In this document: positions 2,583 to 26,528 of the stretch, piece by piece | Layout of the letters: each line of letters starts with the position of its first letter | How positions within the stretch are numbered: position 1 is the first letter of the stretch | From: a virus | Taxonomy: Duplodnaviria; Caudoviricetes | Direction: 5' to 3' (one strand) | Length of the DNA: 57,835 nt | Virus record (IMG/VR): IMGVR_UViG_3300037462_000280 | Span: 1-57,835 of that record | Notes under the pieces: model-generated | What the model was told of the DNA's origin: nothing | Database searches by the model: none | The model's input: only the letters and a program-made list of their open reading frames with translations | Made by a program: the position numbers and the translations under genes

Positions 2583-3033
2583 ATCAAGCGAGGACACAAG
2601 GGAGGGCACGGCAAGGCGGGACGGTAGCCACGTCCGATAGGCGGGATAGGCAAGCCAAGGTCAGAATAAATACACGTGCGGGACTCATATGTGCAGCGCG
2701 GGGACAGGTGGCAATAGCCACTAAGCCGCGGTACGTGCAGCATGGGATGGAATACGTGCGCCGCGAGGTTGACTGGCGGACACGGGCAACGCGCCTGACT
2801 TGAAACAGAGTCGGGGTACGTGGGCATAAGACTGTGCAAATGCGCTGACGCGGCGCTAGGCTTGCTAGAATCTCTGGCACCTTAACATATCGTCATGGGT
2901 GGAACCCGCTTGCCTGCTGGGCTTGCGCTGGACACGACGCATACGGGGCTACGTTTGCCTCGCACGATTGAAAAAACGTACAAGCGCGTGCCTAAGCACG
3001 CAAAGTCGAAACACGCCCATACGTGGGCGTGTA
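2583..3033 (+). ncRNA. Putative ~450-nt structured non-coding RNA
   Basis: No credible ORF; many GU-containing hairpins, a candidate pseudoknot; bounded by a promoter and a hammerhead cleavage site. Confidence 0.6.
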
Positions 3034-3072
3034 TGCGTGAGTTGGCTACTCACGTGCTGATGAGACAAGCCA
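3005..3072 (+). ncRNA. Type II hammerhead self-cleaving ribozyme (cleaves after GUA, 3033)
   Basis: GUC-GAAA-CACGCCCA(UACG)UGGGCGUG-UA-UGCGUGAGU(UGGCU)ACUCACGUG-CUGAUGA-GAC, then AGCCA complementary to loop I. Confidence 0.92.
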
Positions 3073-3094
3073 CACCACTAGGGGACAAACAACC

Positions 3095-8485: not shown

Positions 8486-8575
8486 ACAGCCGCGCCGTTC
8501 GTACAGGGGTGTACGGGCGGTCGGGCTGGGGATGAACATTCGACAACCTCAGTACACGCCTAAAGGAGGCAATCA

Positions 8576-9067
8576 ATGCACAACATTCACACCCGCTTTT
8601 TGAACGAATATCACCCCTCTCAATCGCTCGAGGCCGCTATCCATAGTCAGGCGCTGTCGGTGGGAAACAAAGAAATCCGAAACAAACTTAGGCGAGACGC
8701 GGCGGAATTCAGTGCCGCAATCGAAGGGAAGCTGGCGGAATTCGCACAACGGTACGGCAACGTTGATTTGCGTGGCAGTCTGTATGAGGGAGAAGGGTTG
8801 CCCCCGACCGGCATCACCGCACAACAGATGCTCTGGAATGAGGTTGCGCGTCTTCTGTTCGAGCGTGGCGGGGAGTGGCGTCCCTACACCCAAGTGGACG
8901 CGCAAGGGGTTGTTTCCGCCCCGTTGCCGGAGCGGATGACGGTGTTTGAGTGGTATTTTGCCTACGACGTGGTAAAGGCAGTTGGTGAGGCGCTGTCGGA
9001 GATTTTCCTTTCCATCGGTCGTGACGGCGCGTTTGACGCCGAACACTATCACTGGTTGCGTTCGTAA
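8576..9067 (+). CDS. Hypothetical protein
   Basis: RBS AAAGGAGG. Confidence 0.75.
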   Translation: MHNIHTRFLNEYHPSQSLEAAIHSQALSVGNKEIRNKLRRDAAEFSAAIEGKLAEFAQRYGNVDLRGSLYEGEGLPPTGITAQQMLWNEVARLLFERGGEWRPYTQVDAQGVVSAPLPERMTVFEWYFAYDVVKAVGEALSEIFLSIGRDGAFDAEHYHWLRS

Positions 9068-9158: not shown

Positions 9159-9836
9159 ATGACCAGCGAGAACCGCCGTGCGAATCTGATGCTAAAAAAC
9201 TATGAAGGCCAGATGCTGGCCGAGTCGATCTTCGAGGCCTGCAATCTCCGGGAGGCGAAGTTCCAAAACGCCAACTTGGAAGGCTCCAATTTTTGGCTGG
9301 CCGAATTGACGCAGGCCGACTTTCGCGGCGCCGACCTGCGCCGCGCCAACTTGGACAGTGTGAAGGCGCGTGGCGCCGATTTTCGCGGCGCCGACCTGCG
9401 AGGCGCGAACTTGTGCGGCGCGAACTTGACGGACGCCGATTTTCGCGGCGCCGACCTGCGAGGCGCCAACCTGCGCGGCGCCGAAATGCAATGCACGGAA
9501 TTTCGTGGCGCCGACCTGCGCGGCGCGCAAGTCGGGATATACGAAGACAGAGTCGGCGGTATCGCCGGTGCGCGTTTGTTCGATGGCGCTTATCTGGATG
9601 GCGCGATTGGGGCTTATCGCTCCCCAGAAAGAGGGCTGGTTCTCAGCCCTTTTATGGGGTGGGAGAGCTACAGGCCGCGAGAAGAGTACGCCTATGCCGT
9701 CCTCACTGAGGACGGGGCGCTGATGCTCCACCACGCATACAATGTGGTGGCAGAGATTCGACACGTTGAAATCGTGTCGGAATTTTATGCCGACTTTGAG
9801 CGATACGTTCAAGGTCGAATCAGCCAAAGCCGATGA
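9159..9836 (+). CDS. Pentapeptide repeat protein
   Basis: Tandem ADFRG/ADLRG/ANLRG repeats. Confidence 0.92.
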   Translation: MTSENRRANLMLKNYEGQMLAESIFEACNLREAKFQNANLEGSNFWLAELTQADFRGADLRRANLDSVKARGADFRGADLRGANLCGANLTDADFRGADLRGANLRGAEMQCTEFRGADLRGAQVGIYEDRVGGIAGARLFDGAYLDGAIGAYRSPERGLVLSPFMGWESYRPREEYAYAVLTEDGALMLHHAYNVVAEIRHVEIVSEFYADFERYVQGRISQSR

Positions 9837-15365: not shown

Positions 15366-16289
15366 ATGTCTCAACAAGAAAACATCACGGAAACACAAAA
15401 AGCGATTGACCGTCTTTGGCGGCAGATAGAGGCACGACTTCAGCGATATTGGCCGGTCTACAGTCTGTCAGGCTTTCCCGATGATGAAGCGAAAACGCTC
15501 GAGGTCTTTAGGGTTGGGAAGCTCATACATCCAGCCGATGTGCATTTCAACTATGAACGACTAAGGGACATTGATGAGTACCGCAAGAGCTTGCAAATCT
15601 ACATGAGGGAATTGGATATGGGAGCGCTACTCGGTATGCGAGGTACTGACGCTAACCCAAGAGCCATGTGTATCTGGGAGTTAGAACGGCTGCACAACGC
15701 GGGGCACTCTCTCGTAGGGTATACGACGTTCACTGACCGTCCTTACCAAATCATGACGGGTGGCAATTTTGATGGGGCTGACTTGCGTGGCGTTAAGCGT
15801 GCACATTTCAAGTCATGCAGCCTTAGAGGCGCTAAGTTCAATCATTCAGTAGAGGACAATGGTTATCCGTACCCGCCCCACTTCACGTTTGAGGATTGTG
15901 ACTTGACCAACGCAAGCTTTGCAGGAGCCTTTTTGCATGTTAAAGCCTACCGATGCGACTTGACATCGGTAGACTTTAGCAACGCGACACTTCACCGCTC
16001 GTTAATCAAGGGCTGTGTGATGACAAACGTGGTACTGGATTGGACTTCCCCAACCGAAATCGGGCTATCCAACCAAGTAATCATCGGGGGCGATGTTAAT
16101 AAACCCAACCTCATTGTCTACGCCGTCTATCACCGCACTGCCTCAGGCGCACCTCGCATCATGTTCAAGCGGGGCAAGTACTGGGGTGAGGCTGAAGGAC
16201 TATTGGCAGGTCATCGTGCTGTTCGGGGGGAACTATCAGAGTTTGTGACCAAGGCAACAAAATCGCTCATCGCACGGAATGGAGGCTAA
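15366..16289 (+). CDS. Protein with central degenerate pentapeptide repeats
   Basis: GNFDGADLRG, CDLTNASFAGA, CDLTSVDFSNATL. Confidence 0.7.
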   Translation: MSQQENITETQKAIDRLWRQIEARLQRYWPVYSLSGFPDDEAKTLEVFRVGKLIHPADVHFNYERLRDIDEYRKSLQIYMRELDMGALLGMRGTDANPRAMCIWELERLHNAGHSLVGYTTFTDRPYQIMTGGNFDGADLRGVKRAHFKSCSLRGAKFNHSVEDNGYPYPPHFTFEDCDLTNASFAGAFLHVKAYRCDLTSVDFSNATLHRSLIKGCVMTNVVLDWTSPTEIGLSNQVIIGGDVNKPNLIVYAVYHRTASGAPRIMFKRGKYWGEAEGLLAGHRAVRGELSEFVTKATKSLIARNGG

Positions 16290-16292
16290 CAC

Positions 16293-16946
16293 ATGATTGT
16301 CGCATTCGAGGGGTTGCGCTACACCGGCAAAACCACCACAGCCAAGAAGCTTGTCGCGGGGCTGAACGCAATCGAAGGGGTGCGGGCGCTATACATCCAC
16401 CCGTTCGAGTTGGTTGACCGCTACTGGAACCGCCCATACCGTGACCTCATCGCTGAGACAGAGGGCGAGGCGCGGCAAAGCATGATGCTGGTGGCACACG
16501 CGCAAGCGATGCAGGTGGCTGAGCATTTTATCTCTGAACGGCCACTGAAAGTGGCCGTTATCGACCGCTCTATCTTTAGCTTCTACGCTTACGGCGGGAT
16601 GGATTGGACACCCAAACTCATGCGCTTTGACAACGTTGTGTGGATGAGTTGCTCGCCCGAAGAAAGACTGCAACGTGCAAACACAGGCGGGCGGGTGCGT
16701 GCAGCAAACGACCAAGACGGGAACTACAATGAGTTTGAAGTCGCCAAGCGATACAGCGATATGTTTCGTTGGCGTAACATCATTTACATCGGTTCCCCGT
16801 TGCTTGAACCCAAGCCCCCTTACGAGAATGCAAACCAGTGCTACGATGCTATGTTCTCTGTGCTGGCTGCAAACAACGCGATTTTAGGGTGGTCGGGCGC
16901 AAAGACCTATCCGTTACCTTTTGACCTGCCTGACGTTGAGGCGTAG
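16293..16946 (+). CDS. Thymidylate/dNMP kinase-like protein
   Basis: MIVAFEGLRYTGKTT, VIDRSIFS, CSPEERLQR. Confidence 0.82.
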   Translation: MIVAFEGLRYTGKTTTAKKLVAGLNAIEGVRALYIHPFELVDRYWNRPYRDLIAETEGEARQSMMLVAHAQAMQVAEHFISERPLKVAVIDRSIFSFYAYGGMDWTPKLMRFDNVVWMSCSPEERLQRANTGGRVRAANDQDGNYNEFEVAKRYSDMFRWRNIIYIGSPLLEPKPPYENANQCYDAMFSVLAANNAILGWSGAKTYPLPFDLPDVEA

Positions 16947-16952
16947 CAGGGG

Positions 16953-17423
16953 ATGAAGAACGTTCGCTCATTGAACTGGGTTGCCAAAGAGGCGCGACAT
17001 CGTGGCCTTAAACGCACCATGCAATGGGCACAGCTTAGGCTACACCGCTACCCCAAGCGGCTTAAGACCAGCGGCGGCTGGGGGGTGCTGCCGCAAGATG
17101 CTGAGGATGCAATACGATACCTATTCAAGGAGGCGAAGATGAAGCAATCCGCAATCGACACACAAGAGACCCCGATGGTTATGATTGAAGACGACCCCAC
17201 CCCAGTGCGCGCCACCCTGCCGACAGAGCGTGAGCCGATGACATTGGACGACCTGCGAGGGTTGCTTGAAAGCACGTCAACAGGCGTCGCGGGGGTGGTC
17301 AAAGTGACGGTCAAAAAGAGTGGCAAAGAGGTCGATTTGTCCCTCGAAATGATGGGCAATTTGCCTGACGGAACGTATACCACATTCGTGCATTTGGGTG
17401 AGTGGGAGAAGGAGAACCGCTGA
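16953..17423 (+). CDS. Hypothetical protein
   Basis: Operon position. Confidence 0.65.
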   Translation: MKNVRSLNWVAKEARHRGLKRTMQWAQLRLHRYPKRLKTSGGWGVLPQDAEDAIRYLFKEAKMKQSAIDTQETPMVMIEDDPTPVRATLPTEREPMTLDDLRGLLESTSTGVAGVVKVTVKKSGKEVDLSLEMMGNLPDGTYTTFVHLGEWEKENR

Positions 17424-17890
17424 TGATTTTCACCGAGAACCGGTATGAGCAAGTTCTGCGCGGGCAGAAGACGCAGACGCGCCGAATGATGAAAGAAATG
17501 GAGAGCGGAATACGCTATGATGGGTATTTATGCGTGCAGTACTCTAGCGGGATATGCTTGGCCTTACCAGCTTATATTGGAAAAGAGACCGTGGCATACT
17601 ACACGATATACGCGGTTTGCCATGACACAGGGCGAGTGAAGTGGGTAGTTGGTAAGACCTACGCAGTGCAGCCCAAGCGTGCGGCGAAGTCAGGCGGGCG
17701 CATCAAGATTACGCGCCTCGGTTACGAGTTGGCCGGTGACATCAGCGAAGAGGACGCGATTGCAGAAGGCTTTGAGACCCCCCAGCAATTCATCGAGTGC
17801 ATCATGCAGATTTACAACCTGACCGAAGGCGCTGCACGCAACACTTGGATGTGGGTCATCGAGTTTGAGTTGCTGGAGGTCTATGGATAA
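17423..17890 (+). CDS. ASCH-domain protein
   Basis: MIF...VLRGQKTQTRR...DISEEDAIAEGF...WVIEF. Confidence 0.85.
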   Translation: MIFTENRYEQVLRGQKTQTRRMMKEMESGIRYDGYLCVQYSSGICLALPAYIGKETVAYYTIYAVCHDTGRVKWVVGKTYAVQPKRAAKSGGRIKITRLGYELAGDISEEDAIAEGFETPQQFIECIMQIYNLTEGAARNTWMWVIEFELLEVYG

Positions 17891-18107
17891 GTACAGTCTG
17901 TACTGGCAACCCTACACGACGAAGCACCGCGTATTCCTCGCCACTTACAACAGCATCGAGGAATGTATGCTCTACGCTAGTCGGATTGAAGACGAGAGCA
18001 ACTTGTACGGTTACGACCCTTCAAAGTGGCGCACGAAAATCGGGACGGGGGTGGTAGCACACTACGACTACATGCTCGACGGGGAATACACCATCGTCAT
18101 CGAATGA
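17883..18107 (+). CDS. Hypothetical protein
   Basis: RBS GGAGGT. Confidence 0.7.
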   Translation: MDKYSLYWQPYTTKHRVFLATYNSIEECMLYASRIEDESNLYGYDPSKWRTKIGTGVVAHYDYMLDGEYTIVIE

Positions 18108-18108
18108 G

Positions 18109-18137
18109 TTGACAGCGTTGTAGAAGCGTGCTATATT
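18109..18137 (+). promoter_or_regulatory. Sigma70 promoter for sRNA-A
   Basis: TTGACA-17-TATATT with TGn. Confidence 0.8.
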
Positions 18138-18143
18138 GAGTGG

Positions 18144-18219
18144 GTCACAGATTGCCTCCGCTCCGTGATTGCCTCCTCAGGCGCAAAACCCCACGCCATC
18201 CCCCGTGGGGTTTTGTTTT
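18144..18219 (+). ncRNA. sRNA-A: two GAUUGCCUCC anti-SD motifs plus intrinsic terminator
   Basis: Promoter, repeated anti-SD motif, terminator CCCCACG/CGTGGGG-TTTTGTTTT. Confidence 0.75.
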
Positions 18220-18235
18220 GCCTACCCATCGCCGT

Positions 18236-18299
18236 AAAAAACAACAAAAACCCGCCACATTTGAGCGTGCCGTAAGGCATAGGCTTGGCGGGTATAGTC
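18236..18299 (-). ncRNA. sRNA-C candidate or large terminator hairpin
   Basis: TGtTATACT at 18305-18313; stem ACCCGCCA/TGGCGGGT plus U tract. Confidence 0.4.
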
Positions 18300-18314
18300 A
18301 TTGCAGTATAACAC

Positions 18315-18471
18315 AAAACCCCAGCAGTCTGGAAACTGCTGGGGCGTGTCTCTTACAGGTTGTAAGAGACTGCGCTTGACGTTGGCGCGTCAAGCGCGGT
18401 ATTGCAGCTCATCATCGAGTTGAGCATTCGCTACTCTGAGCGCCAAGCGGAAAGGAGGACACTTGACGCCC
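18315..18471 (-). ncRNA. sRNA-B: 5' hairpin with UGUCCUCCUUUCC anti-SD loop, three more hairpins, terminator
   Basis: Promoter TTGACG(18504-18499)-17-TACACT(18481-18476); GU pairs fix the - strand; terminator 18315-18344. Confidence 0.75.
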
Positions 18472-18487
18472 CTACAGTGTAACACAT

Positions 18488-18670
18488 TTATGGCCAGTCG
18501 TCAACCACACTATCGGTTGCATCGTCATCCAGTGTGTCATACACATCCATCTCAGGGTCTTCCCAATCCTCAGCGATGAACGCAAACAGGTGGCGCAGGT
18601 AGATAAGTTGCTGGAGTTCAAGCGATGGAAGCTGATTCGGTTCAATGGGGGTAAGCGGGTCAGGTTGCAT
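18488..18670 (-). CDS. Small acidic protein, antitoxin-like
   Basis: AEDWEDPEMDVYD motif; RBS AAAGAGG. Confidence 0.6.
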   Translation of the reverse strand: MQPDPLTPIEPNQLPSLELQQLIYLRHLFAFIAEDWEDPEMDVYDTLDDDATDSVVDDWP

Positions 18671-18704
18671 AATGCCTCTTTGGGTTTAGAACATAATATC
18701 ATCA

Positions 18705-18733
18705 TTGACCGAATTTGTGTGCGGGTGTATGAT
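18705..18733 (+). promoter_or_regulatory. Sigma70 promoter for the hairpin/tRNA-like transcript
   Basis: TTGACC-17-TATGAT. Confidence 0.75.
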
Positions 18734-18854
18734 GTTAAAGGGTGTTGTGCAGAAGCACTACCTTCACACCCTAGCGCGACACCTGCACAATACCCCACCG
18801 GTCTGGAGTGACCTTGCGGCGCAACTCTAGACCCAACAGGTAAACCGCTGATTT

Positions 18855-18928
18855 GGGGCTATGGTGTAAGAGTAGCATGGCTGGCGTATGAACGGCTGGA
18901 TAGGGGCGCAACTCCCCTGTGCCCCACA
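18855..18928 (+). tRNA. Degenerate tRNA-like RNA 1 (anticodon not assignable)
   Basis: GGGGC/GCCCC acceptor, D arm GUGU/GCAU, GCUG/CGGC arm, T arm AGGGG-CGCAACU-CCCCU. Confidence 0.5.
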
Positions 18929-18929
18929 A

Positions 18930-18999
18930 ACGGTCTTGGTGCAGACAGTAGCACGCCCGCATTGGAGCGGATGACACCGGTGCAATTCCGGTAGCCGTA
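18930..18999 (+). tRNA. Degenerate tRNA-like RNA 2 (loop AUUGGA)
   Basis: ACGGU/GCCGU acceptor, D arm GUGC/GCAC, CCGC/GCGG arm, T arm ACCGG-UGCAAUU-CCGGU. Confidence 0.55.
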
Positions 19000-19005
19000 C
19001 TGAGT

Positions 19006-19083
19006 AAAAAGCAACCCCGCAACCTGTGGCAAGGTGTGCGGGGTCTGCCTAGCGCTGAAAGGAGACTTCATGCGCCAGAGTTA
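19006..19083 (-). ncRNA. sRNA-D: hairpin carrying CAUGAAGUCUCCUUUC (anti-AUG plus anti-SD) and terminator
   Basis: Promoter TTGACG(19116-19111)-16-TATAAT(19094-19089); terminator CCCCGCA/TGCGGGG plus U tract. Confidence 0.72.
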
Positions 19084-19194
19084 TAGCCATTATACCTAAA
19101 CTGCCCTACCCGTCAAGCCACCGCTGAATCAGCGCGTGGCATTTTCGCTTACCCAGAAAGTCTCTCGCATACCAAACACACAAGGAGTAACCCC

Positions 19195-19545
19195 ATGACA
19201 CCGAAACCTATGAAGCGCTGGCTTGATGCTTTTGCCTGCGCAATTATTGACCGTGAGGCCGTCCAATTGTCTGACGGTTTTTTAGCCGAGGCAGTTGAAA
19301 GCCCGCGCTGGAATAGGAATATCCTCGGCTGCTACTTAGAAGAAATCGTCGTGCGCCACGACGGTCACGATGTTCTAAAGCTCGGCGCGCCTTACACGCT
19401 GTGGGTACATCCCGAAGGTTATGATGTAGCTCCAGTCGAGGTGGAGATGACCCCGCAATCAGAAGACGCTGCGCTGGTTAAGGCCGCTCGCGTCGCAATG
19501 ATGAAATGGCTGGCCGCTGAGTTGTTGAGCGAGGCGCAATCATGA
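19195..19545 (+). CDS. Hypothetical protein
   Basis: RBS AAGGAG. Confidence 0.7.
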   Translation: MTPKPMKRWLDAFACAIIDREAVQLSDGFLAEAVESPRWNRNILGCYLEEIVVRHDGHDVLKLGAPYTLWVHPEGYDVAPVEVEMTPQSEDAALVKAARVAMMKWLAAELLSEAQS

Positions 19546-20378
19546 GCCAACCATTTAAGGGTTACCGCGCCCCTACCTTCACCCAGACCCCTAATGAGGC
19601 GTTTGACGCTATGCCTGAGCTTACGGGGGCAGAGTTCAAATGCCTGATGTACGTCGTGCGAAACACGTTCGGCTACCACGAACGGGTCAAGCAACTCAGC
19701 CTCACCCAATTCTGTACGGGCAGAACCAAGCGAGATGGGACAGTGCTAGACCGTGGCACTGGTCTGAACCGCGAGACGGTCGTTGTTGCGTTACGCGGGC
19801 TTGTCGAGAAAGGCCACCTCATTGAGTATGTCGATGAGACGGATAAGGGGCGTGTCTCTAAGGCTTATGGGCTAAACATGTTGCCTGAAGACGCTGATGA
19901 AGACGCTGGACTAGTCGGAAAATCCGACTACCCCCAGTCGGAAAATCCGACTACCCCTAGTCGGAAAATCCGACCCCGTACTAAGAAAGAAACTATAGAA
20001 ACAAACCAAGTACATATTCCGCTGGGCGTTGCCAGCGGGATGAGCGATGAGCGCAAGCCAACGTTCGATGACCTCTTTGGCTCTCACACACGGCCTACCG
20101 AGTTGCCATTATCCGTGCGGCTTCACACCGCAATCCGCACGGCCTTCTATCAAGACCGCAAGGTCACGCAATCAGAAGAGTTCCTCATCGCGCAAGCCGT
20201 CAAGGACTTGGTTTCTGTCGAGTTCAAGCCTGAGGACGTGCAAGGCTTCTATGACTGGCTCATGGGCAAGGGCTTTACCGCCCTGACCCCACGGGCGATG
20301 GGCAATCACGTCAACACTTACCTCGGGGAGATACAAGCCCCGAAGGCGCGCCGGACATTCACGATTGAAGGGGAGTAG
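19542..20378 (+). CDS. Phage replication initiator (lambda O-like wHTH)
   Basis: FTQTPNEAFD.MPELTGAEFKCLMYVVRNTFGY...GTGLNRETV; internal iterons. Confidence 0.85.
   Translation: MSQPFKGYRAPTFTQTPNEAFDAMPELTGAEFKCLMYVVRNTFGYHERVKQLSLTQFCTGRTKRDGTVLDRGTGLNRETVVVALRGLVEKGHLIEYVDETDKGRVSKAYGLNMLPEDADEDAGLVGKSDYPQSENPTTPSRKIRPRTKKETIETNQVHIPLGVASGMSDERKPTFDDLFGSHTRPTELPLSVRLHTAIRTAFYQDRKVTQSEEFLIAQAVKDLVSVEFKPEDVQGFYDWLMGKGFTALTPRAMGNHVNTYLGEIQAPKARRTFTIEGE
19912..19974. repeat. Three palindromic iterons AGTCGGAAAATCCGAC(TA), 22-23 bp period; probable origin
   Basis: Copies at 19912, 19936, 19958 inside the initiator gene. Confidence 0.85.
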
Positions 20379-20394
20379 GGGGCAAGATACGCGA

Positions 20395-21282
20395 TTGAAC
20401 GCGATAAGCTTGTTTAGCGGGATAGGGGGTATAGACCTCGCATTTGCAGCTGCCGGTTTCGACATAGTAGCACAAGTCGAGATTGACCCATATTGCAGGG
20501 AGGTTCTAAAACATCATGCCAAAACCTATTGGCCACGTGCCACACAATACGAAAACGTCACCGACTTTGGGGCAACGCAAGTCCAATGCGCTGATGTCAT
20601 CTTTGGGGGGTTCCCGTGCCAAGACATATCGGTCTCGAATCGCAACGGCGCTGGTATTGAAGGCGCACGTTCTGGCTTGTGGTGGGAGTTCTTCCGTATC
20701 ATTAGGGAAGTTAAACCTCGGGCTGTTCTCTTGGAGAACGTTTCAGCAATCGCTTTTCGAGGGGGAACTACAGTTATTGCAGCGCTTGCCCACTTGGGGT
20801 ATCACTGCCGATGGGGTGTTATCAGCGCTGCCGACGCCGGTGCATCTCACACCCGTGCCAGATGGTGGTGTGTGGCCTACGCCCGTGGCAACCGATTCGA
20901 CAAACAGGTTGCCACCAAAGAACCCAGTGTTTCTATCGACAGGGCTGGTGAGGCAACAGAATACGGAATACCAAAGCCAAGTGCGACTTGGGCAAGCAGT
21001 CAAGCTGTTCGGCGACACACAGGCTTTCCTCAATCCCGACTGGGTAGAAGCATTGATGGGTTATCCGCCTTCTTGGACAGACCTATCTTCCCCAGCGGGC
21101 CGCACGTTGCGCCTTATCCGTGGGAACCACCCCGACAAGTGGTATCTCGTGCGTCAGATTGGGCGCACCGTATTCACGCCTTAGGCAATGCGGTTGTTCC
21201 AGCAGTTGTTTATCCTATCGCAAAAGCGATTTACCAAGAATTGAATAGGGGGCAAGATGGAGACAACACGCCAAAAGGTTGA
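20395..21282 (+). CDS. C5 cytosine DNA methyltransferase, large subunit (start uncertain, 20365-20395)
   Basis: SLFSGIGG, GGFPCQD, LLENV, HTRARWW, ALGNAVVP. Confidence 0.92.
   Translation: MNAISLFSGIGGIDLAFAAAGFDIVAQVEIDPYCREVLKHHAKTYWPRATQYENVTDFGATQVQCADVIFGGFPCQDISVSNRNGAGIEGARSGLWWEFFRIIREVKPRAVLLENVSAIAFRGGTTVIAALAHLGYHCRWGVISAADAGASHTRARWWCVAYARGNRFDKQVATKEPSVSIDRAGEATEYGIPKPSATWASSQAVRRHTGFPQSRLGRSIDGLSAFLDRPIFPSGPHVAPYPWEPPRQVVSRASDWAHRIHALGNAVVPAVVYPIAKAIYQELNRGQDGDNTPKG
20516..21184 (+). CDS. Nested alternative-frame MTase small subunit (motif IX); true start likely internal
   Basis: WPTPVATD...LGQAV...LNPDWVEALMGYPPSWTD. Confidence 0.7.
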   Translation: MPKPIGHVPHNTKTSPTLGQRKSNALMSSLGGSRAKTYRSRIATALVLKAHVLACGGSSSVSLGKLNLGLFSWRTFQQSLFEGELQLLQRLPTWGITADGVLSALPTPVHLTPVPDGGVWPTPVATDSTNRLPPKNPVFLSTGLVRQQNTEYQSQVRLGQAVKLFGDTQAFLNPDWVEALMGYPPSWTDLSSPAGRTLRLIRGNHPDKWYLVRQIGRTVFTP

Positions 21283-23119
21283 GGCGTATCTGGTATCGAA
21301 AGGGTTCAAGAACAAGGGCAACTCATGGGATGGGAACTGCCCGTGGCGTGCCGACGCCGATAGCAAGTCATTCCGTGTCACGTTCGGCGATGATGAACAC
21401 GGCGCGTGGGTTGACCGCACCCACAACGAATCGGGAAGCTTGTACGAATTCTGCCAGCGCGTCGGGATTGCACTGCCCGAGAGAACGCTCGCAAACGACA
21501 CAAAACGGGGCTACACGGGGCTTGAGGACTACGCACGGGCACACTGGGCACCCCTAGAGGCTTTCGTGGCTGCAAAGTGGCAAGAAGGCGCGATTTACGG
21601 GCGCCCTGCAATCTCTTTCCCAACCGCAAGCGGGGTGCGCTACCGGTGCATTGATGGGCAGAAGCCACCCTTCATCAACGAGAAGGGCTACACCGCCTGC
21701 TGGTATGGGATTGGGCGCGCTATCTCAGTCGCTACCGAGATGCAATCCCCCATCGTTCTGACCAACGGTGAGGCGTCTGTGGTGGTCGGTCAATACTGGG
21801 GCGTGCCCGCGTTGGCCGTCACCAGCGGTTCCGAGAAGAAGCTGGCCGACCACCTGTTGGCAGAACTGAAGGTCAAGTGGGGTGGCAAGCGTATCATCAT
21901 CGCCCTCGACTGTGACGATACGGGGCGTAAGGCCGCCCAAGACCTCGCTGCACAACTGACTGAGAATGAGTTTGTCGTATCGGTCGTTGACCTCATGCTC
22001 ACGGATAAAGGCGACTTGTGCGACTTCTGTGGGCTGTATGAGCGGGGCGCGTTTGCAGAGTTACAACGCCGTGCCACGTTCAAGGTGCAAACGAAGGCCG
22101 ATACGATGTTGCTGGGGTTGCAAGCCCTTCAGCCCGAATTAGCCAAGCTTGAACGCTTGCTCGTAAATGGAGACCGGAAGTCCCCGACCGCGATTGAGCA
22201 ACTCGAGAAGCTGTATGCGCGCATTGGGAATGTCTTGCGTGGTATGCCCAGCAACGTGCGTATCACCGGCGACCAAATGGCGGACATGCTGGCGGTGCGG
22301 TACAGCGCAAATGACAGCGGGGGGCTAGATACGGGGCTGCGCTTGCTCGATGAGCGCCGCAAGGGGTTTCGGGCGGGCATTCACATCGTGCTGGGGGCAA
22401 CCGGCATGGGCAAATCGACATTCATGCAGAGTGTGGCTGGGCACATGATTAAGACCGGCCACCGCGTGTTGATTATGCCTACCGAGATGGACGCGATTCA
22501 ATGGGCTACAGGCGTATGCGCCTACCTGCTGGGCGTTACGACCGATGTGATTGAAGACAAGCGCTTGACGCCTGAGCAACAATCACGCTATGGGGACGTG
22601 CTGGAGCTTGTGCAGCGCAACACCGTGTTTGTTACGTCCAATCGCGTCACCATTGCAGGTCTTCAGCAACACATCGACGACGCCCGCCAAACCGGCGCGC
22701 TTGACGCGGTAATCATCGACAGCATGAGCAACCTCATGGGGCAATACGGCGACAACTTTGCGATGCAAGGGCACCACGCATATGGGGAACTGATTGCGTT
22801 GCGTAGCGCTACCAACGTGCCGTTTTTCGTGACCCACCAGATTGATGGGCGCAAGAAATCCGCTGAGAGTGACAACATCAAGCTTCCCAACATGTACGAT
22901 GCAAAAGGCTCATCAGGGGTTGAAGACGCGGCGGATACGCTGATGTTTATCTACTACCACCACTACTATGTGCTAAAGGGCTTCTCCAAGCCTGACGACG
23001 CATTCCCCGAGGGTACGGCGCACATCGGGGTGTTGAAGGTGCGCGGGCGGGCGGCAAAAGAGGATGTACTCATCCCTGTGAAGCTCGTGCGCGGTCAAGG
23101 CTTTTACAATCTACGCTAA
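21257..23119 (+). CDS. Primase-helicase (Zn-binding, TOPRIM, DnaB-like)
   Basis: CPW, IIIALDCDDTG, KGDLCDF, Walker A GATGMGKS, VIIDS, GSSGVEDAAD. Confidence 0.9.
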   Translation: METTRQKVEAYLVSKGFKNKGNSWDGNCPWRADADSKSFRVTFGDDEHGAWVDRTHNESGSLYEFCQRVGIALPERTLANDTKRGYTGLEDYARAHWAPLEAFVAAKWQEGAIYGRPAISFPTASGVRYRCIDGQKPPFINEKGYTACWYGIGRAISVATEMQSPIVLTNGEASVVVGQYWGVPALAVTSGSEKKLADHLLAELKVKWGGKRIIIALDCDDTGRKAAQDLAAQLTENEFVVSVVDLMLTDKGDLCDFCGLYERGAFAELQRRATFKVQTKADTMLLGLQALQPELAKLERLLVNGDRKSPTAIEQLEKLYARIGNVLRGMPSNVRITGDQMADMLAVRYSANDSGGLDTGLRLLDERRKGFRAGIHIVLGATGMGKSTFMQSVAGHMIKTGHRVLIMPTEMDAIQWATGVCAYLLGVTTDVIEDKRLTPEQQSRYGDVLELVQRNTVFVTSNRVTIAGLQQHIDDARQTGALDAVIIDSMSNLMGQYGDNFAMQGHHAYGELIALRSATNVPFFVTHQIDGRKKSAESDNIKLPNMYDAKGSSGVEDAADTLMFIYYHHYYVLKGFSKPDDAFPEGTAHIGVLKVRGRAAKEDVLIPVKLVRGQGFYNLR

Positions 23120-25657: not shown

Positions 25658-25673
25658 CCACGAGGAGGCAATC

Positions 25674-26528
25674 ATGAATATTCAAGGCAAGCTGCACAAC
25701 GGCAAGGTAAGCGGGGGTATCGAATGGGTCAAGACCATCCACCCTGACGGTACCGAAACACAAGGCTACACATGGAACCCAGTCGGCGGGTGCAAACACG
25801 CCTGCCGCTGGGATATGCCGGATGGGAGTGTAGCGCAGTGCTACGCCGAGGAATTTGCTACCAAGTACCGCTCGCCCAAGTTCTACGCCGAGGGGTTTGA
25901 CCACCACTACTTTAACGAGAAGGCGTTGGATGAGCCGTATCGCGTCCACACGCCCGCTCGTATCTTCTTGGACAGCATGTCAGACCTAATGGGGCATTGG
26001 GTTCCAGATGAGCAAATCCAGCGCGTGCTGGAGGTTGTGCAAGACAACCCCCACCACACGTTCTTGCTACTCACGAAAAACGCCCCCCGCCTGTTGCAGT
26101 TTGAGTTCCCCGAGAACCTGTGGGTTGGCGTGTCTATGCCCCCTACCCAGATGTTTGGGAAGCCTGTGAGTGAAAACCAACGGCGCTCGTATATCATGCG
26201 CGCCTTGTCTGTCCTGTCCGATGTCCGTGCGTCTGTCCGGTGGATGTCGTTTGAACCACTGTCGTATGACGTGGTGTCGGACATGTATGCGTGGCAGATG
26301 CACCGTATCCAGACTGAAGCGCCCTCGGTGTACTTTCCGCTGGATTGGGCGGTCATCGGCGCTGCAAGTAGCGGGCGCAAAGTGTTTCAGCCCAAGCCGC
26401 ACCACGTTCGGCGCTTAGAAGAGGCGCTTGGAGAGATTAGCCCTCAGTTCCCCGTGTTCTATAAAGGCAACTTGCGAGGTAACGCCGGTATCACGGAATG
26501 GCGCGAGGAATACCCCGCGATTGGTTGA
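25674..26528 (+). CDS. DUF5131 (phage Gp37/Gp68 family) protein
   Basis: IEW, TWNPVGGC..AC...CYAE, IFLDSMSDL, LLTK, WMSFEPL, LDWAVIG. Confidence 0.88.
   Translation: MNIQGKLHNGKVSGGIEWVKTIHPDGTETQGYTWNPVGGCKHACRWDMPDGSVAQCYAEEFATKYRSPKFYAEGFDHHYFNEKALDEPYRVHTPARIFLDSMSDLMGHWVPDEQIQRVLEVVQDNPHHTFLLLTKNAPRLLQFEFPENLWVGVSMPPTQMFGKPVSENQRRSYIMRALSVLSDVRASVRWMSFEPLSYDVVSDMYAWQMHRIQTEAPSVYFPLDWAVIGAASSGRKVFQPKPHHVRRLEEALGEISPQFPVFYKGNLRGNAGITEWREEYPAIG

Follow-up and report, generated by a model that had tools for sequence, protein, structure and literature searches.

The IMG/VR virus record IMGVR_UViG_3300037462_000280 is 57,835 bp long, looks complete and carries direct terminal repeats (DTRs) at its ends; this whole stretch is referred to here as the window. 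Its open reading frames (ORFs), scanned against Pfam (89 ORFs of the window) and PHROGs (only the 16 ORFs around the region discussed below), encode a terminase, a portal protein, a capsid protein and a Rad52-like protein, as well as two thymidylate-kinase-like proteins, pentapeptide-repeat proteins, a C5 methyltransferase and a primase-helicase. The sole long stretch of the window without a large ORF is an island of ~1.1 kb, or 1.9% of the sequence, located between an 80-aa ORF that ends at 18107 and orf116, a 116-aa ORF that starts at 19195 and is followed by a RepO-like initiator (19542-20378), the methyltransferase and the primase-helicase. The island contains several predicted promoter-terminator units on both strands. 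One of them, unit B, is a hairpin RNA of the abiF-motif type, which is the type of RNA antitoxin that restrains the abortive infection protein AbiF. On balance, we lean towards reading the island as a divergent accessory and regulatory region that includes a decoy antitoxin, unit B, directed against host AbiF abortive infection. The abiF-motif match, a pair of tRNA-like elements and a conserved gene for a 60-aa protein are all absent from the initial annotation of this region.

Unit B is an orphan abiF-motif (AbiF antitoxin-type) RNA at 18236..18313 on the (-) strand, recognized by its Rfam match, BLAST likeness, spacing and fold. It comprises an extended -10 element (TG at 18313-18312 and TATACT at 18310-18305), a hairpin (18292-18250) and a U-tract (18249-18236), and thus has a predicted promoter and a predicted terminator of its own, with a predicted RNA at 18298-18236. 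A possible fifth promoter had been placed at 18313(-) in the initial annotation; the extended -10 element is present, but the -35 region is poor. In a sensitive scan of 17900-19400, the hairpin scores 33.8 bits against Rfam family RF03085 (E = 6.5e-4 in this 1.5-kb scan). All 37 model positions are covered, and the departures from the printed consensus consist of one base and a 1-nt insertion. RNAfold reproduces the structure, with a 6-bp outer stem, a 3-bp inner stem and two unpaired blocks, AAGCCU on the 5' side and GCUCAAAU on the 3' side.

When the whole island is compared by BLAST with 401 Anaerolineae-class genomes, strong matches occur only at this hairpin, in genomes G002 (91%, E = 6e-13) and G268 (86%, E = 1.5e-8); the 8 other matches are weak (E = 1e-4 to 0.01). 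The G002 match, 91% identical over 55 nt, is to a hairpin upstream of an Abi_2 gene. Both at this locus (L123) and at L124 in genome G003, a sigma70 promoter is followed by the hairpin, a U-run and then the Abi_2 gene (184-189 bits). Outside the loop, unit B is nearly letter-identical to the AbiF-linked Anaerolineales hairpins, and unit B, L121, L123 and L124 all have the same spacing between the -10 element and the hairpin. These copies belong to a subtype with an extended apical helix (UGCC-loop-GGCA). A search for the subtype pattern gives 4 matches in 185,579 species genomes (one per species), 3 of them in Anaerolineae metagenome-assembled genomes (MAGs), and no further viral locus. The locus L121 (1482-2523 (+), from an Anaerolineaceae MAG) has the hairpin and a consensus promoter without an Abi_2 gene downstream; its hairpin lies upstream of a Gp49/HigB-like and HTH_3 gene pair that resembles a type II toxin-antitoxin system. 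The host of the phage is probably a member of the Chloroflexota (Anaerolineae). A profile of primase-helicase homologues gathers 69 viral loci (at most 44% identity), 80 metagenome loci and 16 genome loci, and since 12 of these 16 are in Chloroflexota MAGs, the likely host clade holds matching AbiF loci.

The toxin gene itself is absent from the phage: a six-frame search for Abi_2 gives nothing at E <= 1, and none is present in the Pfam scans of the 89 ORFs. Downstream of unit B there are only the converging unit A, described below, and the end of the 80-aa ORF. The RNA RCd22 of C. difficile, which has abiF motifs, is reported to bind AbiF directly and to neutralize it in cis and in trans (10.1101/2025.04.15.648962). 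According to reviews, a Prevotellaceae AbiF is likewise neutralized by RNA, and AbiF is described as an ancestor of Cas13 (PMC12737573, PMC13064643). In a model analogous to these systems, host AbiF, an Abi_2/HEPN RNase, would be held inactive by its cognate hairpin RNA acting in trans. A phage that transcribes this hairpin under a promoter of its own would keep AbiF neutralized at the point when infection would release it, and abortive infection would thereby be blocked.

Hairpins of this type without a toxin gene recur in other phages. The core pattern is found at at least 119 loci in viral contigs, a number comparable with chance by a rough estimate; among the matches listed, 58 of the 119 have a closed outer stem, and 2 of these 58 look like chance. 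Within the same listed matches, Abi_2 is directly downstream in only 6 of the 58 stem-closed loci, in a check of downstream genes that took in 47 ORFs from 36 loci. Other stem-closed hairpins adjoin genes for the small terminase, portal, T7-type single-stranded DNA-binding protein (SSB), tail tube, capsid, RtcB or Macro-domain proteins, or no ORF. Whole-record searches for Abi_2 covered 50 of 56 records (six near-duplicates or extras were left out) and, again among the matches listed, found the gene in 9 and none in 41; for records at least 90% complete, 13 of the 16 listed lack it. Three distant relatives of the phage (L009, L013 and L073, with 26-39% identity in the large terminase, TerL) carry the hairpin at other genomic positions. 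Unannotated copies are also present in virulent phages, namely the T4-like Acinetobacter phage Acj61 and Roseobacter phage CRP-143 (Autographiviridae). In Acj61 (L313, 77195-77235), the hairpin lies in the intergenic space that separates a hypothetical gene from a GIY-YIG homing endonuclease gene, ~2 kb from a tRNA cluster. Orphan AbiF-antitoxin-type hairpins thus appear to be common in phages. No publication on orphan abiF-motif RNAs in phages was found, and it may be that Zilberzwige-Tal et al. (Cell 2025) or its supplements report them.

Several observations count against a decoy antitoxin. The score of unit B is 3.2 bits below the Rfam cut-off of 37 and its whole-window E-value is 0.025; at gathering thresholds, Rfam gives no match anywhere in the window. 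The loop insert of 14 nt, compared to 9 in the RF03085 model, may account for part of this deficit, and bona fide copies of this subtype that are AbiF-linked in Anaerolineales reach 37.2-37.7 bits, so the whole subtype sits at the cut-off. Abi_2 is present in only 3 of the 401 sampled Anaerolineae-class genomes, and 2 of those 3 carry a different hairpin flavour, so the presumed target is rare among the sampled candidate hosts; moreover, the host of the phage is inferred rather than known. Two of the six records left out of the whole-record search, L052 and L118, probably carry Abi_2, given their likeness to L031 and L096. Because the filter applied to the viral copies selects pairing in the outer stem, covariation there is partly a product of construction; the apical helix, where the filter does not select pairing, varies in sequence among copies yet always pairs. 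Among the RNA units of the island (A, B, C and F) and its tRNA-like pair, comparative support is limited to unit B. Finally, the hairpin and U-tract of unit B would also serve as a plain terminator for leftward transcripts.

This last point is central to one alternative, in which unit B is a relic or a captured terminator: a piece of a host or prophage abiF leader, acquired by recombination, that only ends leftward transcription and has no AbiF-related role. The U-tract fits such a role, as does the position of unit B, at the very point where leftward transcription has to end ahead of the converging unit A. A T-run is present in 48 of the 57 hairpin copies examined, and both the rarity of Abi_2 in the sampled host class and the score below the cut-off are consistent with a relic. 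However, termination would require no more than a GC stem and a U-run, and in unit B the unpaired AAGCCU and GCUCAAAU blocks are identical in every letter to those of the AbiF-linked copies. The extended -10 element of unit B is at the spacing of AbiF-linked genes, and a working terminator is already present 25 nt upstream of the unit. Orphan copies recur, moreover, in 13 of the 16 near-complete viral genomes listed, which are of unrelated types. A relic or terminator is thus unlikely. In two Anaerolineae-class genomes (L303 in G120 and L304 in G161), AbiF genes are preceded by a divergent hairpin in which ACGCCUCU ... GCG(A/C)A replaces AAGCCU ... GCUCAAAU, which hints at specificity classes of the antitoxin RNA.

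The wide occurrence of orphan copies could also mean that the hairpin has a different partner, either an RNA-binding protein of phage or host other than AbiF, or AbiF itself, with the hairpin as the phage RNA that AbiF systems have evolved to sense and thus as a trigger rather than an inhibitor. Orphan copies are far commoner than AbiF-linked ones on viral contigs (the 41 of 50 listed records without Abi_2), and their positions vary, adjoining small terminase (TerS), portal, SSB and capsid genes. A further case is found on an Anaerolineae-class MAG contig (L128, 1502-1621 (-)), where only 3 nt separate a tRNA-like element (42 bits) from the abiF-type hairpin behind it; the class search gives no Abi_2 match in this genome, and the arrangement hints at tRNA processing as the means by which some orphan hairpins are released. 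Nevertheless, in the literature as far as it is represented here, AbiF is the only partner shown for the motif, and the RNA inhibits it. A trigger, for its part, would be selected against in phages. A different partner is therefore very improbable, and a decoy antitoxin is still the preferred reading of unit B.

The rest of the island was initially annotated on the basis of four sigma70 promoters, at 18109(+), 18504(-), 18705(+) and 19116(-), each leading into short structured RNAs and terminators. A consensus scan recovers all four, with 11/12 matches and a TG at 18109(+), 9/12 and a TG at 18504(-), 10/12 at 18705(+) and 11/12 at 19116(-). On both strands of the whole window there are 10 sigma70-like sites at >=10/12, 3 of which are inside the island, where ~0.19 would be expected (Poisson P ~0.001); a scan of 16000-21500 gives 6 sites versus 3.6 +/- 1.8 in shuffles. 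Consensus scans are not by themselves evidence of function, and every transcription start and end point given for the island is a prediction. A hairpin with a U-run does occur 60-160 nt past each promoter: the (+) strand terminator has a 13-bp stem and a U-run ending at ~18219, the (-) strand terminator stems are at 18345-18318 and 19035-19014, and the abiF-type hairpin carries its own U-run. The predicted RNAs all fold far more stably than shuffled sequences (z-scores: A, -4.8; B, -3.4; C, -7.5; F, -5.0; (+) strand leader, -4.6), so the structured RNAs and terminators of the annotation are borne out.

It could be argued that most of these units are chance promoter-like and hairpin sequences in a spacer and that no discrete small RNAs are made. 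The units are known from sequence alone, consensus scans carry the limitation just mentioned, and the island is not conserved in the available relatives, all of which are distant. However, 1.9% of the genome accounts for 3 of its 10 best promoters, each of them leads into a hairpin and U-run, with z-scores of -3.4 to -7.5, and one of the units matches a curated RNA family. Chance is thus an extremely unlikely explanation for the island as a whole. The three different anti-Shine-Dalgarno (anti-SD) seeds that had been noted are likewise present as C/U-rich motifs: A has two copies of GAUUGCCUCC, C has UCCUCCUUUC in its 10-nt apical loop, and F has UCUCCUUUC. The seeds of at least C and F are also plain complements of SD-like sequences on the opposite strand, and potential ribosome-binding site (RBS) targets in trans for the C and F loops are unremarkable, with best energies ~2.3-2.7 standard deviations below the mean.

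Unit A is a candidate for action in trans. Its promoter (18109..18137 (+), TTGACA-17-TATATT with TG, 11/12) is located directly after the stop codon of the 80-aa ORF, and the predicted small RNA (sRNA) A of ~76 nt (18144..18219 (+)) consists of the two GAUUGCCUCC copies, a 13-bp terminator hairpin and a U-run. The GAUUGCCUCC motif is the exact complement of GGAGGCAATC, the RBS of two genes, one starting at 8576 (RBS at 8565..8574 (+), a candidate sRNA A target) and one starting at 25674 (identical copy at 25664-25673). Complementarity is 9/10 at the RBSs of 8156, 14547 and 53163(-). At <=1 mismatch, GGAGGCAATC occurs 11 times in the genome versus 3.9 expected, and 0 of 100 shuffles reach 11; of the 9 copies outside the sRNA, 5 are at the RBS of long ORFs. 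In a control that permutes the flanks and keeps the CCUCC cores, the top-3 energy is reached by 10 of 300 permutations and the top-5 energy by 2 of 300, which is modest support for targeting.

The 16S rRNA tail in two genomes of the candidate host class is the canonical GAUCACCUCCUUU. The sRNA A motif GAUUGCCUCC resembles the host tail GAUCACCUCC except at two bases, where the phage RBS class GGAGGCAAUC is complementary to sRNA A and not to the 16S tail. Among the 27 GGAGG-type RBSs of the window, the next base is C (GGAGGC) in 14 and T in 10, and none continues with UGAUC, the full complement of the canonical tail GAUCACCUCC. Unit A is probably a trans-acting anti-RBS sRNA for phage genes with the RBS GGAGGCAATC. 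Two observations fit less well: the best single sRNA A duplex energy is not unusual, being reached by 42 of 300 permutations, and the candidate targets form no single temporal class.

On the right side of the island, the promoter P18705 (TTGACC-17-TATGAT) and a structured 115-nt leader occupy 18705..18854 (+). No (+) strand terminator is found between this leader and orf116 at 19195, so P18705 is probably the promoter of the replication operon. Following the leader are two tandem degenerate tRNA-like elements (18855-18927 and 18929-19000 (+)), which score 23.7 and 32.5 bits against the Rfam tRNA model RF00005 (cut-off 29) in a 1.5-kb scan. They are not reported in whole-window Rfam scans or by ARAGORN at default settings, and ARAGORN calls their cloverleaves only at relaxed thresholds. 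In place of a 7-nt anticodon loop with U33, element 1 shows G33 and a G.A mismatch at the closing pair, and the anticodon loop of element 2 is 6 nt long; the T-loops, CGCAACU and UGCAAUU, depart from the UUCRA type. Because of these non-canonical anticodon loops and T-loops, the elements are called tRNA-like rather than tRNA genes. A BLAST comparison with five Anaerolineae-class genomes gives no significant likeness (best E = 0.14). The pair may provide RNase P/Z processing signals or decoys. A tRNA-derived attP site was also considered and was dropped, since no integrase is found.

Unit F (19005..19116 (-)) faces this leader. Its promoter (19116-19089, TTGACG-16-TATAAT) would give a predicted 78-nt RNA at ~19082-19005, ending with the terminator at 19035-19014. 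Over its full length this RNA is the complement of the (+) strand leader, and it spans the SD sequence (19057-19065) and the ATG (19070) of a 9-codon mini-ORF, MRQSYSHYT (19070..19099 (+)). This mini-ORF has a strong SD and, within the leader, precedes orf116 and the RepO-like gene. Unit F would therefore act as a cis-antisense RNA over the ribosome site of the mini-ORF, in the manner of sar or OOP.

The leftward gene orf60 (18670..18488 (-)) encodes a 60-aa acidic protein with the conserved motif AEDW..P.MDVYD. Homologues with this motif are P0065 (85% identity) and the more distant P0066 and P0067, and a viral homologue is present in L302, so orf60 is a real gene, even though it has no Pfam or PHROG family match and ESM Atlas gives nothing above chance level. 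An extended -10 element read from the sequence (TG at 18701-18700 and TATTAT at 18698-18693 (-)) is its likely promoter, divergent from and back to back with P18705. The 108-aa ORF and the 61- to 83-aa ORFs that overlap the RNAs were rejected as genes: they have no family matches, and they cross promoters and terminators.

Unit C (18310..18504 (-)) has its promoter at 18504-18476, within and just past the 3' end of orf60. The predicted RNA (~18469-18310) includes a 5' hairpin with UCCUCCUUUC in its 10-nt loop, two perfect 10-bp hairpins and the terminator at 18345-18318, whose U-tract overlaps the unit B promoter and so doubles as its spacer. Leftward transcription from ~18686 would cover orf60, unit C and unit B. 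With orf60 in its midst, the description of this region as a small-RNA island holds for its promoter-terminator RNA units and fails as far as it implies a purely non-coding region. The proposal of an RNA-based control or host-takeover module is apt overall, and the orphan antitoxin RNA, the cis-antisense unit F and the anti-RBS unit A are in keeping with it; the island also holds a protein gene.

The initial annotation further placed the island where temperate phages usually keep their repressor switch and remarked that no repressor is evident. The latter is correct, as none is found by Pfam among the 89 ORFs. The former is unsupported: the same ORFs include no integrase, CI/Cro-type repressor or antirepressor, the genome has DTR ends, and with no lysogeny genes found, there is no basis for framing the island as a missing repressor switch. 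A related possibility is that the island itself acts as an RNA-based switch for immunity or development, like the P4 CI RNA, P1/P7 c4 and P22 sar systems. Its sRNAs would then set the timing of phage gene expression, and the likeness to abiF would be incidental. The divergent, back-to-back arrangement of P18705 and the orf60 promoter, the perfect antisense match of unit F to the ribosome-binding site in the leader, the complementarity of sRNA A to phage RBSs and the position of the island just before the RepO-like initiator are all compatible with this idea. The gene content and genome ends just described speak against it, however, and it leaves the near-identity of unit B to AbiF-linked RNAs unexplained. 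Such a switch is thus improbable.

A more far-reaching proposal extends the decoy reading in two directions: stand-alone abiF-type hairpins would be a widespread, unrecognized RNA anti-defence class in virulent phages, and the island would be a counter-defence cassette made up entirely of RNAs, each unit mimicking an RNA of the host. The phage types given as carriers are the phage of the window, the T4-like Acj61, Autographiviridae, and jumbo and N4-like contigs. In such a cassette, unit B would imitate the AbiF antitoxin, the tRNA-like pair would imitate tRNAs, as decoys or substrates for tRNA-cutting defences, and A, C and F, with GAUUGCCUCC, CCUCCUUUC and CUCCUUUC, would imitate the 3' tail of 16S rRNA, GAUCACCUCCUUU. 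The combined proposal is doubtful.

Attempts to find the island in other phages were unsuccessful. Relatives carrying it were not found in single-protein scans of viral contigs (RepO, ASCH and primase-helicase), and blastn of the island gives no match in 50,697 phage records and two weak matches only (E = 0.02-0.08) in the 69 viral loci of the primase-helicase profile. An 88%-identical metagenome relative (L207) is a 3,956-nt contig that ends short of the island. None of the relatives obtained contains the island. Elsewhere in the window there is a probable type II hammerhead ribozyme at 3004-3075 (+) (Rfam RF02276, 31 bits, cut-off 37; E = 1.7e-4 in a 400-nt scan and 0.024 in the whole window), with the CUGAUGA and CGAAAC cores present. 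A weak Twister-sister ribozyme match at 9662-9733 (+) (25.6 bits, cut-off 34, E = 0.27) falls inside a pentapeptide-repeat ORF and is probably due to chance.

It was shown only recently that AbiF is an abortive-infection system with an RNA antitoxin, and Cas13 is reported to descend from it. Should phages routinely have the antitoxin RNA without the toxin, these hairpins would constitute a simple, sequence-searchable class of RNA anti-defence gene, one that is unannotated in both cultured phages examined. They would provide a direct handle on AbiF triggering and evasion, and RNA motifs in phages could help in guessing hosts or host defences. To our knowledge, nothing has been published on gene control in Chloroflexota phages, and the island offers a compact set of testable phage sRNAs from such a lineage.

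Parallels for the individual units can be found in several known systems. RsaE and RoxS are C-rich anti-SD sRNAs, and sRNA A is like them in its repeated C-rich motifs complementary to the SD regions of several mRNAs, but it differs in being phage-encoded. P22 sar and lambda OOP are cis-antisense phage RNAs. Unit F shares with them a short, terminated RNA, here of ~78 nt, that arises from within its target region and is complementary to an RBS; its target is different, being a 9-codon leader ORF ahead of replication genes.

The closest counterpart of unit B is the abiF motif RNA itself (RF03085; AbiFr, RCd22), a type III toxin-antitoxin RNA with the same 6-bp outer stem, the same AAGCCU and GCUCAAAU blocks, a sigma70 promoter of its own at equal spacing and a U-tract. 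Unit B differs in that there is no Abi_2 gene adjacent to it or elsewhere in the phage, in having one motif where RCd22 has two, and in its extended apical helix, a feature of the Anaerolineales copies as well, with an RF03085 score 3.2 bits under the cut-off. A hairpin at the cos region of the lactococcal phage sk1 is also reported to inhibit AbiF (Rince 2000 and Zilberzwige-Tal 2025, cited in PMC13064643 and PMC12184496). Both are phage-encoded RNA hairpins, and AbiF inhibition is reported for the sk1 hairpin and proposed for unit B; the sk1 hairpin is said by a review to lack resemblance to the AbiF ncRNA, whereas unit B is a near-copy of it. Pseudo-ToxI of phage PhiTE is said to belong to the ToxIN family, to consist of tandem 36-nt pseudoknot repeats and to have arisen or expanded in escape mutants. 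By this RNA-based molecular mimicry, PhiTE is reported to have evaded ToxIN abortive infection (PMC3475682). The logic common to both cases is a phage-borne type III antitoxin RNA without its toxin and an escape from abortive infection, which for unit B would be directed at AbiF. Although the toxin-antitoxin families differ, and unit B is a standing gene with a promoter of its own, the decoy antitoxin is by this analogy probably a novel version of a known RNA-mimicry strategy.

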